From Candidatus Hodarchaeota archaeon (lineage in GTDB: Archaea > Asgardarchaeota > Lokiarchaeia > Sigyniarchaeales > SOKP01), in contig JBHLJY010000001.1 of assembly GCA_048887225.1 (NCBI GenBank), positions 96,001-160,000 on the forward strand: DNA of 64,000 bases. Direction: 5' to 3'. Position 1 is the stretch's first letter. Each line of letters starts with the position of its first letter. The position numbers and the translations under genes were made by a program. The notes under the pieces are model-generated. The model saw nothing but the letters and a program-made list of their open reading frames with translations, was not told the DNA's origin and did no database searches. This document shows, piece by piece, positions 54-7,481 of this stretch.

Positions 54-1466
54 TTAATTTTTTATCTTTCTCGTATATTTTGAGATTTTTACTAATAAAG
101 GTAGAAATTCAAGCGGATCTCCAAATACGGGAACTTTTCTTTCAGATAGTTTTTTAAAAAGTCTCTCCCAATCTTCAGGACAATTAATTCGCTTTAGGAT
201 TGGAATTAATGGTTTTCTATGTTTATGACCTAAGGTTAGAGCCTCAATCATTTCATTTTCATAGGATTGATTTAATCTAGTTCTAAAAGATAAATCGCTA
301 TTAAAATAAAAACTCGGTAAATCTACTATCATTCCATCAATATTTCTGTCAGTTAACGCTAAATTAATAATATTATAAAAAGTTTCACTGTTGAAAACTT
401 GAGCAGAAACATCTAAAGGATTTTTTGAGCTTGTTCCAAGCGTATAAAAAAGTGATGTTATTTGATTTTGGATGTCAGGACTGAAAGGAGGAACTATCAT
501 ACCCGCTTTTTCAATTAGGTCAACCAATATTACTCCATAACCACCACTGCTGCTAATTACGGCTAAATTTTTTAGATCAAAAAGTCCATATAATTCTATT
601 AAATAGGCAAAAGATATTAATTGTTCAATAGAATCTAATTCAATAACATTATATTGCGTAAAAATAGCTTTCCATATATGATTCTCTCCAGAAATAGTTG
701 CAGTATGCGTTTTTGCGGCTATTGAACCAGTTTTAGTTTGCCCGCCTCTCACGATTGCTATAGGCTTTTTATTTTGTTTAAGAATTTTTTTTAACTCATT
801 TGCTCTCTCTGCCTTAATTCCCTCAATATAACAGATTATAATCTTGGTCTCGGGATCGTTGCTTAAAAAATAGAGTAAATCAACAAAATCTAAATCAGCA
901 CCGTTTCCGAAAGAAAATACTTTGCTAAAATGCATTCCTAACTGATTTCCACCATAAATTACTAAATTACATAATCCTCCAGATTGTGCTATAAATGAGA
1001 TATCACCGCTCTCAGCCGAAAATCTGGGTCTCCACGCAATACCTAATTTGGGATAATACAGACCTAATCCATTAGGACCTAGCAATCTAACTTTATTTTT
1101 AGCCCTTCTTAGTAATTTTTTCTCTAATTCTAAGCCCTCTTTTGTCCCCGAGTCTGAAAATTCTGCAGTAAAAACACTAGCTAGTTTTACGCCTTTTTCA
1201 ACGCATTCATCCATTACTTCTAAAGTTTTTGAGGGTGGAACGGCAATAAAAACAAAATCAACCTCACCAGGAATATCCCTTAATGAAGGATAAATAGAAT
1301 TTTTATCGAATTCAGGAATTTCTTTTATTAGCGGATTTACAGCATAGAGCTTTCCTTTAAAATTTTCTTGGTGATTTTTTAAAAAAAAGAATCCTCGTTT
1401 TTCTGAAGTACCGATAACGGCCATTGTTTTAATATCATTAATAAAAGAAATATCTTTTATATCCAT
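54..1466 (-). CDS. acdA: Acyl-CoA synthetase (ADP-forming) alpha subunit / CoA-binding protein
   Basis: N-terminal CoA-binding domain (MAVIGTS...YPSLRDIPGEVD), GPNGLG, AQSGG, SFGNGADL, phospho-His motif AKTHTATISG, NPLD. Confidence 0.85.
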   Translation of the reverse strand: MDIKDISFINDIKTMAVIGTSEKRGFFFLKNHQENFKGKLYAVNPLIKEIPEFDKNSIYPSLRDIPGEVDFVFIAVPPSKTLEVMDECVEKGVKLASVFTAEFSDSGTKEGLELEKKLLRRAKNKVRLLGPNGLGLYYPKLGIAWRPRFSAESGDISFIAQSGGLCNLVIYGGNQLGMHFSKVFSFGNGADLDFVDLLYFLSNDPETKIIICYIEGIKAERANELKKILKQNKKPIAIVRGGQTKTGSIAAKTHTATISGENHIWKAIFTQYNVIELDSIEQLISFAYLIELYGLFDLKNLAVISSSGGYGVILVDLIEKAGMIVPPFSPDIQNQITSLFYTLGTSSKNPLDVSAQVFNSETFYNIINLALTDRNIDGMIVDLPSFYFNSDLSFRTRLNQSYENEMIEALTLGHKHRKPLIPILKRINCPEDWERLFKKLSERKVPVFGDPLEFLPLLVKISKYTRKIKN

Positions 1467-2332: not shown

Positions 2333-3127
2333 TTGAGTTCTAACTATACTACTTATAGCGAGTCTGAAATCGTTAAAAAATTAACTTTAGGATCACATTT
2401 TTGTTATTTTTATAATAACAAATATGAATTAGTTAATTTCTTAATACCTTATTTTAAAACAGGCTTGGAAAATAATGAATTTTGCATTTGGATTATTTCA
2501 GAAGATTTAACTCCCGATTTTGCTATGAATGCCTTAAGAGAAGCTGTAATTGATTTTGACCACTATTTAGAAAAAGGGCAAATGAAGATTTTGCCTTATA
2601 CAAAATGGTATTTAAAAAGAGAAGTATTTAATCTTGAAAAAGTCATTGAAAAGGCGACATATTATCTTAATCATGCATTAACTAATGGATATAGTGGTTT
2701 AAGAGTAACAGGTGATATTCGTTGGTTAGATAAAAACGATTTAGATCGTTTCATTGATTACGAAATTTATGTAAATAATAGCATTGGAGATTATAAGATG
2801 ATAGCAATTTGTACTTATCCAATCAGTAAATTTAATAAATTTGAACTTTTAGACATTGCAAAATCTCATCAATTTGTACTTACTAAAAGCAATGGAAGTT
2901 ATAAAATAATTGAATATATTGATTCTAAAAGTATTAAAAAAGAGAAGGAGTTAATACAATCTAACATACAAAATATACAACATTTATTAAATTCAATCCA
3001 AGGATATGCTGAAGTTGCGATGATGAAAATAAAGAGAGATAATCCTACTTATAACTACTTAAAAAAAATAAATGCGTCTGCAGAATCAGCATCGGATTTA
3101 GCCAAAAAAATGCTTAGACATAAATAA
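2333..3127 (+). CDS. MEDS sensor-domain protein with a degenerate C-terminal HisKA-like helix pair
   Basis: GSHFCYFY, GLENNEFCIWI, GYSGLRVTGD, AICTYP, SHQFV are MEDS motifs; tail LLNSIQGYAE...LKKINASAESASDLAKKML resembles a kinase dimerisation domain. Confidence 0.8.
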   Translation: MSSNYTTYSESEIVKKLTLGSHFCYFYNNKYELVNFLIPYFKTGLENNEFCIWIISEDLTPDFAMNALREAVIDFDHYLEKGQMKILPYTKWYLKREVFNLEKVIEKATYYLNHALTNGYSGLRVTGDIRWLDKNDLDRFIDYEIYVNNSIGDYKMIAICTYPISKFNKFELLDIAKSHQFVLTKSNGSYKIIEYIDSKSIKKEKELIQSNIQNIQHLLNSIQGYAEVAMMKIKRDNPTYNYLKKINASAESASDLAKKMLRHK

Positions 3128-3369: not shown

Positions 3370-4356
3370 ATGTTGACAAAAGAACAAGTTGATGACATCT
3401 TAAAAAATCACTGTGTCAATCTTCGTTTTCACGCAAGAGGTGGACAAGGAGGAGTAACAGCAAGTAACCTATGTGTTGAAGCATTTATCGGTTTTGGGGT
3501 TTGTCAACCAAAATTCGGAGCTGAACGTGCGGGATCTCCAACAGAAAGTTATGTAAGACTCAGCATGAATGAAGATCTTGTTCGTAGCAATGAGCAAGTT
3601 TATGTACCTCATTTTGTTTCAGTTTTAGACCCTTCTTTATTAACAGAAGTGGATGTCGCTGCTGGTGTACCCAAAGGAGGGTGGATTATAGTTAATACAG
3701 TAATGGATCAAGTAGCTATTCAAGAAATTGTTAAAAGGAAAGATTTGAACATAGCAACTATAGACGCTACAAGGATAGCCTTGGATGTGTTAGGTAGGAA
3801 TATCACAAACACTATAATTCTTGGTTCTTTAATACGAGTTTCTCAGCTTTTTACTTTCGAAGAATTATCTGATGCGATTATGAGAAGATTTAAAGGTGAA
3901 CTAGCTGGTAAAAATATTGCGGCTATTAAGCAGGCTTATGAGGAAACATGTCTATACGAGATTGGAATTGATCCAGATTTTACTTTAGATACTAAAGTTC
4001 CATGGTATCAAGTAAAACCAGGTTTACCAGGTTTTAAGGAAGTAGATAAGGCGGGAGTTTGGTATTGTGATGAAGATGCTATAGAAGTAGGTAGTGGACA
4101 AGTAAATACTGGCTCTTGGGGAGAATGGGAAATGATTTGGGATGAGGAAAAATGTACAGATTGCGCCCAATGCTGGTTTGTATGCCCAGATTTCACCATC
4201 CTAAGAGAGAAAGGTGAAGATGGATTGTGGCATATGGCAGGAATTGATATTTATCACTGTAAATCTTGCCAGAATTGTCTAAATATCTGCCCAGTGGATG
4301 CAATAAGTAAAAAATTAAAACAAGGTCCAGCAGCTTGTGCTGCGCCAGAAGATTAA
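3370..4356 (+). CDS. 2-oxoacid (pyruvate/ketoisovalerate-type):ferredoxin oxidoreductase, fused gamma-delta subunit
   Basis: ARGGQG, FGAERAGSP, IDATRIA (gamma), then NTGSW and two CxxCxxCxxxCP clusters (delta). Confidence 0.9.
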   Translation: MLTKEQVDDILKNHCVNLRFHARGGQGGVTASNLCVEAFIGFGVCQPKFGAERAGSPTESYVRLSMNEDLVRSNEQVYVPHFVSVLDPSLLTEVDVAAGVPKGGWIIVNTVMDQVAIQEIVKRKDLNIATIDATRIALDVLGRNITNTIILGSLIRVSQLFTFEELSDAIMRRFKGELAGKNIAAIKQAYEETCLYEIGIDPDFTLDTKVPWYQVKPGLPGFKEVDKAGVWYCDEDAIEVGSGQVNTGSWGEWEMIWDEEKCTDCAQCWFVCPDFTILREKGEDGLWHMAGIDIYHCKSCQNCLNICPVDAISKKLKQGPAACAAPED

Positions 4357-4371
4357 TGGAGGGATATTAAA

Positions 4372-5598
4372 ATGAGTATTGAACCAATGAGAATATTCTT
4401 TAAGGAGATTAAAGAGCCCGTTGAAACCACAATGATTGGAAATTATGCTGTTGCTGGAGGAGTTACCCAAACAGACCCAGATGTAATTTGTGCATTCCCC
4501 ATAACCCCACAGACTCAGAGCGTAGAAGGGTTGTCCGATGTAGTACATCATGGCAGATTAAAGGCAGCTTTTGTGAATGTTGAGTCAGAATTAGCAGCAA
4601 TTAGTTATTCTACAGCAGCTTGTGCAGCTGGGGCAAGAGCGTTTACGGCCACTGCGAGCCAAGGGTATTTATTGATGACTGAAGGTCTGCCAATAACAGT
4701 AGGTTGGAGACTGCCATTAACTATGATGATCAGTGCCAGAGCTTTCAATTCCCCAAACTTGAATATTTGGAATACTTGGGAATTTACTGAAGTTAATTCT
4801 GAACTTGGTTGGAATATAATCGTCTCGGAAAATGTTCAAGAAACTTACGACGCCGCAATTCTATCGGTAATGATCTCAGAAGATTCATTGTTTCCGACTA
4901 TTTTTGTTCATGATGGATTTATAATCAGTCACTCGGTCCAAAAGCTCTGGTTAACCCCTGATGAAATTGTTAGGAGATTAACTCCAAAGAAGGCAAGACA
5001 CCATATTAATCCCGAGAAACCTGGAACGTGGGGGGGCATTGTAACTCCTGATTTTTTCATGGAAGGCCGCAAAAACTTAGATGAAGCAAAAAAACCAGTT
5101 TTAAATATCATGAAAAATTGTTTCAAGGAATATACCTCTGCGACTGGGCGTGAATATAATCTAATCGAGACTTATAATTTAGATAATTCATCTAGAACCG
5201 CATTTCTTACCATGGGTTCAATGTGTGGGAACATAATTAGTTGGATGACCAACAATAGGGATGTTGGGCTTATTAAAGTACGAGCTTATCGCCCATTCCC
5301 CTATAAGGAATTACAAAAAATTGTTCAAGACCACAACATTGAAAAACTTATAATTTTAGAAAAATCAGATTCTTTGAATGGACTTTTACCACCATTTTCA
5401 ATGACTATTGCATCAGCATTATACCCTCTCAAAACGTTATTTAGAAGTTTTATTGTTGGTTTAGGAGGTCGAGATGTGACTCGAGATGAATTAGATATAG
5501 CTAAGAAAAAAATAGAGGCGATTTCGGATATGAAAGGACCGTTATATATGTATTTAGGTGTAAGAGAAACTAAAACTAAAGTTCATGGGGTGGATTAA
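4372..5598 (+). CDS. porA: 2-oxoacid:ferredoxin oxidoreductase alpha subunit
   Basis: AFPITPQT, VESE, TATASQG, DGFIISH, YRPFP, GLGGRD; RBS GGAGG upstream. Confidence 0.92.
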   Translation: MSIEPMRIFFKEIKEPVETTMIGNYAVAGGVTQTDPDVICAFPITPQTQSVEGLSDVVHHGRLKAAFVNVESELAAISYSTAACAAGARAFTATASQGYLLMTEGLPITVGWRLPLTMMISARAFNSPNLNIWNTWEFTEVNSELGWNIIVSENVQETYDAAILSVMISEDSLFPTIFVHDGFIISHSVQKLWLTPDEIVRRLTPKKARHHINPEKPGTWGGIVTPDFFMEGRKNLDEAKKPVLNIMKNCFKEYTSATGREYNLIETYNLDNSSRTAFLTMGSMCGNIISWMTNNRDVGLIKVRAYRPFPYKELQKIVQDHNIEKLIILEKSDSLNGLLPPFSMTIASALYPLKTLFRSFIVGLGGRDVTRDELDIAKKKIEAISDMKGPLYMYLGVRETKTKVHGVD

Positions 5599-5602
5599 AA
5601 AA

Positions 5603-6691
5603 ATGTCAGAACCAGAGAGAAATGTTCTAAAAGTTGATGATATATTAACCAGATCAGGAAAGGCTAATGTGCTGTTCCTAAATTACGATAACGAGGCATT
5701 TATGAATACAGGTATTCAAGAAAGTGGAGGAACTCCCCCATATGCATCAACTACAACTGGGCCTGCGGGTGAAAAAATACCTGGAAAAGTAGGAGTGAAA
5801 CAGGATTTAGTAACTCCATTTGCATTTTATGGTTCAAATTCTCTATTTTTAGCAACTGTAAATCCTGCCTATCCCAACGATTTTATGGGAAAAATAATTG
5901 AGGCAATGAAAACAAATGGTTCTGCATTTATTCAAGCATATTCAGATTGTATGAGAGGTTGGCGTCATTCAGCAGAAAATGCTGCAAAAATCTCAAAATT
6001 AGCAACAGATTGTGGATATTGGCCCCTTTATACTATTCGAGTGAATGATGGAATTCCTACATTTTCTTATTATAGGGGATTAGATATTGATAAGGATAAA
6101 TTTGTAGAATATCTGAAATCTATGGGTCGATTTAGACATCTATTTAAGCCAATATTTAGAGAAAAAGAAATTGATGAGATTATTTATTTTACTGAACAAC
6201 GAAACAAGAAGTTAAAAGGTTTAATTGAACAATTTGGTGCGGAAAAACCCGTAGATATCTACAGATTAAATAGAAAAGCACTAGAACCTCAAAAACATCT
6301 ACAACAAGGTCACGGGCTATGCCCTGGTTGTGGTGCTGGAATGTTTTTAAATCAACTAGCAACAGCAGCTCAATTAGTTGCTGGGAACAACGTAATTTAT
6401 GTAAATAATACCAGTTGCACCGAAGTCTCTACTTCAAAGGATTTTGTTACCTCGTGGACGGTACCGTGGGTTCACCATCTCTTCGAATCTGGGGCAACCA
6501 TCGCAGAAGCAATAAGTACTGCTTATAAAATCCGTAAAGCAAAGGATGATTATAATGGAGAAGTTCCTTATGTAATACATATAGGCGGTGATGGCTCAAC
6601 ATATGATATCGGATTTCAATTTCTTAAAGCAGCATTAGTAAGAACGAGCACAATGGTAGAAATGCATGAATATTTAAAAGATCAGAAATAA
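5603..6691 (+). CDS. porB: 2-oxoacid:ferredoxin oxidoreductase beta subunit, circularly permuted
   Basis: YDNEAFMNTGIQ at the N-terminus; GHGLCPGCG, NTSC and GGDGSTYDIG in the C-terminal third. Start at ATG 5603 (RBS GGGGTGGA) or at in-frame ATG 5585. Confidence 0.9.
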   Translation: MSEPERNVLKVDDILTRSGKANVLFLNYDNEAFMNTGIQESGGTPPYASTTTGPAGEKIPGKVGVKQDLVTPFAFYGSNSLFLATVNPAYPNDFMGKIIEAMKTNGSAFIQAYSDCMRGWRHSAENAAKISKLATDCGYWPLYTIRVNDGIPTFSYYRGLDIDKDKFVEYLKSMGRFRHLFKPIFREKEIDEIIYFTEQRNKKLKGLIEQFGAEKPVDIYRLNRKALEPQKHLQQGHGLCPGCGAGMFLNQLATAAQLVAGNNVIYVNNTSCTEVSTSKDFVTSWTVPWVHHLFESGATIAEAISTAYKIRKAKDDYNGEVPYVIHIGGDGSTYDIGFQFLKAALVRTSTMVEMHEYLKDQK

Positions 6692-6702
6692 TTTTTTTTT
6701 TT
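6692..6702 (+). terminator. Oligo-T archaeal terminator after the por operon
   Basis: Run of 11 T immediately after the porB stop codon. Confidence 0.5.
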
Positions 6703-6719
6703 AACATCTTATTTTCTTT

Positions 6720-7481
6720 ATGCCTATCTATGTTGAAAAAAATTATCCAGTTTTTACCGTAATTATTGATAATCCCGATGTGAAAAATGCAGTCGATGGA
6801 CCAACAGCCCAAGAATTGGGGGATGAGTTCCGAAATTTCGAAAAAGACGAAAATGCATTAGTCGCTGTTTTATGGGGAGCTAATGGAACATTTTGTGCGG
6901 GGGCTAATTTAAAGGCTATCGCTGAAGGACACGGTAATAGGGTAGATTCTAGAGGAGATGGTCCAATGGGACCTTCTAGAATGGTTCTTTCCAAACCGGT
7001 TATTGCGGCAGTGGCAGGATATGCTGTAGCAGGAGGTTTAGAACTTGCTTTATGGTGCGATATGAGGATTGTTGAAAAAAGTGCAATTTTTGGGGTTTTT
7101 TGTCGACGTTTTGGAGTCCCTCTTATTGATGGTGGAACTGTTCGTCTTCCCAGATTAATAGGTCTGAGCAGAGCAATGGATATGATACTTACAGGACGCC
7201 CTATCTCTGCTAAAGAAGCACTCGAATGGGGTCTCGCAAATCGAGTAGTTGAAGATGGTACGTCAAGAGAAAATGCTGAAGAATTGGCTCGAAATATCGC
7301 ATCATTTCCCAAGATTTGTATGCGCAATGATAGATTGTCTGCTTATGAACAATTTGGGATGAATCTTAAGGATGCGATGGCTAATGAATTCGAATGGGGC
7401 TTAAAGACCTTGGCAAGTGGAGAATATTTGATGGGAAGCGATGCTTTTACTCAGGGAAAAGGAAAACATGGAAAATTCTAA
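6720..7481 (+). CDS. Enoyl-CoA hydratase/isomerase (crotonase family)
   Basis: FCAGANL, KPVIAAVAGYAVAGGLELALWCD, GVPLIDGGTVRLPRLIG. Confidence 0.93.
   Translation: MPIYVEKNYPVFTVIIDNPDVKNAVDGPTAQELGDEFRNFEKDENALVAVLWGANGTFCAGANLKAIAEGHGNRVDSRGDGPMGPSRMVLSKPVIAAVAGYAVAGGLELALWCDMRIVEKSAIFGVFCRRFGVPLIDGGTVRLPRLIGLSRAMDMILTGRPISAKEALEWGLANRVVEDGTSRENAEELARNIASFPKICMRNDRLSAYEQFGMNLKDAMANEFEWGLKTLASGEYLMGSDAFTQGKGKHGKF

Follow-up and report, generated by a model that had tools for sequence, protein, structure and literature searches.

2-oxoacid:ferredoxin oxidoreductases (OFORs) belong to the most ancient enzymes of anaerobic carbon metabolism. The main energy-yielding step is assigned to them in models of Asgard physiology (PMC7015854). 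The locus described here raises the question of whether the beta subunit of such an enzyme can be cut within the motif that binds thiamine diphosphate (ThDP) and Mg2+, carry its two halves in swapped order and still be kept by an archaeal lineage as a working subunit. The locus lies in a stretch of 64,000 nt from Candidatus Hodarchaeota archaeon (contig JBHLJY010000001.1), which is referred to as the window. Taken as a whole, the observations are best explained if the three co-oriented genes that span positions 3370-6691 encode a pyruvate-type OFOR whose beta subunit is a natural circular permutant, and the probability of this reading is estimated at about 0.85. The following features were annotated, with the basis of each assignment in brackets:

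54..1466, minus strand: alpha-type subunit of an ADP-forming acyl-CoA synthetase, divergent from the operon (NCBIfam TIGR02717, 270 bits, below cut-off)
3370..4356, plus strand: fused gamma-delta subunit with a CoA-binding POR domain and a ferredoxin domain that has two CxxCxxCxxxCP motifs (Pfam POR PF01558 and Fer4 families; NCBIfam PorC/PorD-like)
4372..5598, plus strand: alpha subunit, PYR domain I and domain II (Pfam POR_N, PFOR_II)
5587..5593, plus strand: GGGGTGG, ribosome-binding site of the permuted beta gene (sequence)
5603..6691, plus strand: circularly permuted beta subunit, 362 aa plus stop (ORF, phmmer, homologue lengths, invariant columns, hhalign, AlphaFold2)
6692..6702, plus strand: run of 11 T straight after the beta stop, resembling an oligo-T terminator (sequence)
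6720..7481, plus strand: crotonase/enoyl-CoA hydratase family gene (Pfam ECH_1; NCBIfam PRK08259, above its cut-off)

The frame of the beta gene is uninterrupted on the plus strand, ends at 6691 and offers two possible starts, 5585 and 5603. The ATG at 5603, which lies 4 nt past the stop of porA (the alpha gene), was chosen because the homologues are 362 aa long and because GGGGTGG is found 9 nt upstream. At two related loci (L045 and L046) the sequence GGTGAT, similar to this site, precedes the beta ATG. A ribosome-binding site and a T-run had been expected to flank the gene, and both are in place. The 28 nt between the beta stop and the ATG of the enoyl-CoA hydratase gene (6692-6720) consist of the T-run and AT-rich sequence and lack a ribosome-binding site. 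The T-run may have two roles, ending one transcript and supplying the TATA region of the next, which would be leaderless. The enoyl-CoA hydratase gene is the usual downstream neighbour in family f1, where it adjoins beta at 7 of 11 loci, and the acyl-CoA synthetase gene is directly divergent from gamma-delta at L034 and L035 as well. A hotdog thioesterase gene is a further neighbour of permuted operons, and a different family has genes for an M32 carboxypeptidase and a PLP enzyme nearby. The order gamma-delta, alpha, beta is shared by the window and 24 related loci across families, and it is kept at every permuted locus with enough flanking sequence, with L050 as the sole exception. At that locus, in the closed genome G314, a permuted beta gene (4543-5610) has neither alpha nor gamma-delta in the 4 kb to its left or right. 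A start at the first ATG would cut off most of the N-terminal extension described below, and the frame is open further upstream without a standard start codon.

The original prediction held that a single ORF carries the two halves of PorB in swapped order, and this is what profile and sequence comparisons recovered. In a phmmer search against the PDB (368-aa numbering), ORF residues 29-199 match residues 119-282 of 9bt4_C and residues 235-353 match its residues 6-115 (E 1e-44 for the match of both halves), while the beta subunit of oxalate oxidoreductase (5c4i_C) gives the same swapped pattern of two high-scoring segment pairs (HSPs) with E 1e-40. Alignment with hhalign against 74 canonical beta sequences places q8-210 on canonical residues 119-324 of 325 and q218-354 on residues 3-138; at stricter or default settings the first match begins at q18 rather than q8. 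Each half occurs once in the ORF, with one HSP per half, in agreement with the claim that neither is duplicated. The collinear order of PorB/VorB-type beta subunits (Cys-rich half, GDG, DNE half) is thus replaced by a swapped one, which defines the variant. The motifs were located where they had been predicted, namely YDNE at 5684-5695, NTGIQ at 5705-5719, a Cys codon at 5948-5950, CPGC at 6320-6331, a further Cys codon at 6416-6418 and GDG at 6587-6595. Along the chain, the following parts can be distinguished:

5603..5653, plus strand: N-terminal extension, residues 1-17, a lineage-specific strand and short helix (AlphaFold2 E6-10, H11-15)
5654..6232, plus strand: residues 18-210, the canonical PorB C-terminal half (about 128-324) with the YDNE strand, NTGIQ, Cys116 in SDCMRGW (fourth cluster Cys), WPLY, GRFRHLF and the long terminal helix (hhalign, invariant columns, VIA-align)
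6233..6253, plus strand: junction of about 7 residues, 211-217, from native C-terminus to native N-terminus and including the start of a new beta-strand, 212-221 (hhalign boundaries; AlphaFold2 pLDDT about 91)
6254..6643, plus strand: residues 218-347, the canonical PorB N-terminal half (about 3-131) with GHGLCPGCG (Cys240, Cys243), NNTSC (Cys272), VPWVH, GGDG, DIG and then a helix to Arg347 (hhalign, invariant columns, helix profile)
6644..6688, plus strand: C-terminal tail, residues 348-362, which prolongs the helix in the model (AlphaFold2 H338-354)

Since the helix that follows GDG..DIG stays at the C-terminal end, the break site is located after this helix and before the YDNE strand. It falls inside the GDG-x(~27)-N motif, so that the predicted breakpoint within the ThDP/Mg motif was borne out and could be narrowed to the interval between helix and strand.

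The beta subunit scores 208.9 bits with the PorB model NF008819 (cut-off 405), and alpha scores 293 bits with its NCBIfam model (cut-off 550). None of beta, alpha and gamma reaches an NCBIfam equivalog cut-off, with PorB, PorA and PorC as the best-scoring models, and the operon is therefore assigned to a divergent subfamily. Identity among the alpha subunits of permuted operons is 62-87%, versus 32-37% to canonical Asgard alphas. With Pfam PF02775, beta obtains 25 bits against a threshold of 21.9, with no single stretch passing, and the permuted beta is not among the nine ThDP proteins listed by a genome-wide PF02775 search. The genome encodes six OFORs: two canonical POR/VOR types, a KOR-like enzyme, a two-subunit enzyme, an IOR and the permuted one. 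Permuted homologues bear the name 'hypothetical protein' at NCBI. With such labels, and with domain searches missing the gene, metabolic reconstructions of Lokiarchaeia undercount OFORs.

A gene of this kind could be mimicked by an error of assembly or binning, through normal porB fragments joined in the wrong order or through a collapsed tandem repeat, and the window does stem from a draft genome of 49 contigs. However, the same order and length (about 356-368 aa) are found in all of the best 120 matches among 5.8 billion proteins, at 53-87% identity; these matches were drawn from JGI, ENA, NCBI and Logan assemblies, and more than 120 protein clusters have the permuted order. A full-length permuted match is present in 129 of 161 genomes of the same class (about 80%, from 7 families) and in 34 of its 40 high-quality genomes. 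Five of the genomes with a permuted beta consist of a single contig (G212, G213, G218, G249 and G314). Moreover, the junction region itself is conserved, with residues L207, G212 and Y220 invariant or nearly so, and the probability of an artefact is considered negligible. The check that had been proposed, a search for the same order in other Asgard genomes, was thereby answered by many independent assemblies of relatives, closed ones included.

Outside this class, about 157 genomes, drawn from 25 further families of the phylum, lack the permuted order and gave only canonical-order partial matches at 35-47% identity, and in a phylum-wide sample permuted matches are confined to families f1 and f2. 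Among the best 150 matches in a set of 1.84 billion representatives, the permuted order is seen in only one other 50%-identity cluster (P0121) and in some fragments, and the other 120 matches that cover two halves have the canonical order. The suggestion of a lineage-diagnostic rare genomic change is supported at the level of the class (a clade with 100% support; 7 families versus 0 of 25 others), with secondary losses. Four relatives of the same genus or family that are 92-99% complete (G008, G049, G234 and G243) lack the whole permuted operon, and their best alpha match is only 34-35% identical. Because the alpha gene is missing along with beta in these relatives, the operon has been lost several times, and it is therefore dispensable and accessory, not essential. 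One apparent absence of the operon in a relative was traced to a contig end and discarded. Likewise, a 715-aa alpha-beta 'open frame' in G150 (L052, 2100-2200) was rejected as a gene fusion, as it arises from a run of N in the scaffold.

Losses of this kind would also be expected of a non-functional relic, that is, a decaying leftover of a duplicated porB in which cofactor binding has been lost; the five other OFORs of the genome could cover its function, and the low Pfam and NCBIfam scores point in the same direction. The pattern of conservation argues strongly against this explanation. YDNE28-31, N35/T36/G37/Q39, C116, C240, C243, C272, GDG329-331 and DIG335-337 are invariant in 53 permuted sequences with identities down to 53%, which means that every cofactor-binding residue is retained. 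The ThDP/Mg2+ motif (GDG-x(25-30)-N, then NTGxQ) is complete, with its residues on two chain ends rather than contiguous. C240, C243, C272 and C116 align with the canonical cysteines of the proximal [4Fe-4S] cluster (CxxC, TxC and C..GW), as anticipated by the claim that all four cysteines are kept. Comparison with eight relatives yields a dN/dS of 0.04-0.08 over the whole gene, a value that is only approximate because dS is saturated, and the N-terminal extension is the fastest-evolving part of the beta gene (dN 0.2-0.27). The partner genes are as conserved as beta, with a mean column identity of 82% for alpha. In about 125 genomes, the gene shows no stops or frameshifts, with the sole exception of a 30-nt hairpin insert in three genomes that resembles a spliced mini-intron. 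The permuted beta is under purifying selection, its conservation suggests that it is functional, and a decaying relic is considered very improbable. The swap of the halves is real, old and under selection.

How the rearranged chain could fold was addressed with AlphaFold2 on the family alignment, which gave a model with pLDDT 81.8 and pTM 0.87, in which the ThDP-binding loops (32-41 and 51-65) have pLDDT < 50; a model of a canonical PorB (P0127) reached pLDDT 95.7. After mapping through a pairwise alignment, 19 of 21 secondary-structure elements of P0127 recur in the permuted model in rotated order, with the break of the rotation between canonical H115-129 and E133-139. The elements that are new in the permuted model are an N-terminal strand (6-10) and short helix (11-15), a linker strand (212-221) and a C-terminal helix lengthened to 338-354. 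Searches with VIA-align against OFOR beta subunits and domain VI returned Z 12-13.5 for the C-half and 4.3-4.8 for the N-half. Foldseek and VIA-align match one half at a time (best TM 0.43); both are sequential aligners, and a match of the whole fold is therefore beyond them. Judged by the per-half matches of VIA-align and the rotated elements, the protein is predicted to have the PP-domain fold of OFOR domain VI, in which GDG and DNE would reunite in space at the ThDP/Mg2+ site.

In the proposed enzyme, the beta chain would open with the short lineage-specific extension, followed by the YDNE strand, whose Asn would bind Mg2+, and NTGxQ. It would then run through the normal C-terminal half with the fourth cluster cysteine and, about 7 residues past the native C-terminal helix, enter the native N-terminus, which carries the cluster cysteines of CxxC and TSC, closing with GGDG..DIG and the following helix. 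If folded as modelled, the subunit would have ordinary PorB architecture, with a ThDP-diphosphate/Mg2+ site built from the two chain ends. Together with alpha, which would contribute the PYR domain and the activating Glu73, and gamma-delta, with its CoA domain and two [4Fe-4S] clusters, the enzyme would oxidatively decarboxylate a small 2-oxoacid to an acyl-CoA and reduce ferredoxin. The acyl-CoA product would feed substrate-level ATP synthesis in peptide fermentation.

Residues T45, E73, R123 and I132 of alpha, which correspond to Thr31, Glu64, Arg114 and Ile123 of Desulfovibrio africanus PFOR, are invariant in 21 orthologues. This conserved Thr/Arg/Ile pocket argues for a small 2-oxoacid as the likely substrate and against oxalate; the alpha subunit of oxalate oxidoreductase (OOR) has Arg where the Thr of PFOR is kept here, which makes oxalate an unlikely substrate. 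The neighbouring genes (acyl-CoA synthetase, thioesterase, enoyl-CoA hydratase, M32 carboxypeptidase and PLP enzyme) fit peptide or amino-acid fermentation via pyruvate or 2-oxobutyrate, and judging from these sequence features, one of these two would be the most likely substrate. In a cultured Lokiarchaeon, energy metabolism is based on 2-oxoacids, with fermentation of peptides and amino acids (PMC7015854). It has also to be considered that the enzyme is functional in a changed role, acting on another class of substrates, running specifically in the synthase direction or differing in its partner or in the way its cofactors are loaded. A stem of 1.35 substitutions per site in the beta tree described below would agree with such a change, as would the low identity of alpha to any canonical alpha, the failure to reach an equivalog cut-off, the position of the new elements (N-terminal strand and helix, linker strand and longer C-terminal helix) at the active-site end of the fold and an adjoining enoyl-CoA hydratase gene with no obvious role after pyruvate oxidation. 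However, alpha has lost neither the pyruvate-site residues nor the activating Glu, V275 of beta, positioned after Cys272, resembles canonical PorB, and the full chain of three clusters is present along with the CoA domain; a changed role is considered improbable. Domain VII of D. africanus PFOR protects the proximal cluster. A comparable benefit is conceivable here if the permutation were adaptive rather than neutral, with chain ends at the ThDP/Mg2+ site adding three lineage-specific elements and creating an OFOR subclass with altered cofactor loading, proximal-cluster protection or partner docking; this proposal is regarded as doubtful.

As a reference for the pyruvate-type permuted enzyme, PorB of Methanosarcina acetivorans (9bt4 chain C; NF008819) shares the homologous halves, the ThDP/Mg motifs, the four proximal-cluster cysteines, the secondary-structure elements and the partner subunits. 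In the window, however, the halves are swapped, GDG...N is split between the chain ends, and gamma and delta are fused, whereas the M. acetivorans enzyme has four subunits. The permuted beta is also longer than PorB (362 aa versus ~300 aa) because of its terminal extensions and structured linker. The OOR of Moorella thermoacetica (5c4i) is likewise encoded by three genes, with domains III and V fused in one subunit, and its beta subunit gives a VIA-align Z of 12, but the OOR beta is in canonical order. At a larger scale, families of ThDP enzymes differ by permutation of domains, PP-PYR-x versus PYR-x-PP (bioRxiv 10.1101/2021.03.21.436335). Both cases rearrange the order of the chain and leave the active site intact; there, whole domains were moved and GDG...N remained contiguous, whereas the beta subunit of the window is cut within its PP domain and within the motif itself. 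In the literature searched, only this domain-level permutation of ThDP enzymes was found and no intradomain permutation of an OFOR beta subunit is described; the latter would be new, while permutation among ThDP families as such was already known.

Whether the permutation occurred once or repeatedly can be read from a tree that was built after un-permuting the permuted sequences in silico. These sequences form one clade with 100% SH-aLRT and the long stem noted above, placed among PorB-like sequences that include canonical PorBs of other Asgard families and apart from the genome's own two canonical POR/VOR paralogues. Because the permuted sequences form a single clade, a single origin is well supported, which would date to the common ancestor of the class or earlier.

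Natural circular permutants that are explained by a model of duplication and truncation include some DNA methyltransferases, transaldolases and the saposin/swaposin pair. The permuted beta resembles them in that each half is present once, a short linker joins the native termini and the new ends fall in a surface loop that separates a helix from a strand; it differs from them in that neither a tandem intermediate nor a clear remnant of the duplication was found. The most likely route, and a plausible one, begins with tandem duplication, after which the copies would have been fused in frame and both outer parts lost. This course is compatible with the way in which the native termini are directly linked: canonical residue 324 of 325 aligns with q210 and canonical residue 3 with q218 (hhalign), which leaves about 7 residues between them. 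The C-terminal helix is truly homologous to the canonical helix (profile rank 1 of 313 offsets), and the N-terminal extension shows a weak similarity to the canonical helix, which reaches rank 6 of 308 offsets only with the Arg in register. A possible duplication footprint, in which relaxed hhalign settings covered canonical residues 119-138 twice, was dropped in view of the strict start at q18 and of a profile test that gave no significant similarity for the terminal extensions. In the same test, the C-terminal tail (348-362) has no significant similarity to the canonical strand that it would replace.

For the route alone, gene fission followed by re-fusion in swapped order is a rival. The terminal extensions, which lack significant similarity to the segments that they would duplicate, would agree with it, and a search among longer proteins for PorB-PorB tandem intermediates gave none at E <= 1e-10, which is weak evidence. 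On the other hand, in-frame tandem fusion predicts native termini joined as closely as they are here, the N-terminal extension shows the weak similarity to the canonical helix noted above, and the half-length PorB proteins that were checked are contig-end fragments: P0207 and P0214, candidates for naturally split PorB genes, both start at the end of a contig of ~1 kb. Fission and re-fusion are accordingly rated as unlikely, with some weight left to them, and duplication with in-frame fusion is preferred.

The GDG...N signature is treated as contiguous in every description of a ThDP enzyme in the literature searched. The permuted beta therefore represents a natural experiment, in which this signature can be split between the chain ends and is yet kept across an archaeal class. 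The swap is a discrete marker of the class, apparently of single origin, that can be used as a rare genomic change for placing new Asgard genomes, and it reveals a permissive cut site in the PP domain that may be of use to protein engineers. Cultured Lokiarchaeia appear to carry the permuted gene, which is hence open to bench work.

Extra sequence in or next to permuted porB genes was observed in some relatives. In three genomes, the gene contains a 30-nt in-frame insert with a TGA stop (L042, about 4352-4381, G229; L043, about 3031-3060, G311; L044, about 2281-2310, G310), which splits NTG|IQ precisely where the Gly codon meets the Ile/Val codon and leaves the remaining gene intact; the porB of the window has no such insert. 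Its 9-bp hairpin is preserved by compensatory changes (TTGAAAAAA/TTTTTTCAA versus CTGAAAGAG/CTCTTTCAG), and the flanking exons pair around it (z -4.4 for L042). The insert is a candidate tRNA-type mini-intron in an mRNA, with bulges that differ from the canonical 3-4-3 arrangement. Additionally, a block of ~1.06 kb lies between the beta and enoyl-CoA hydratase genes of G168 (L012, 2608-3800). It holds two small genes on the reverse strand, of 172 aa (PIN-like by eye) and 99 aa. After it, the final ~100 nt of beta, which reach from the GDG codons to the stop, occur a second time in a diverged form (~80% identity). From its sequence, the block resembles a cassette that was inserted together with its own version of the end of the gene.
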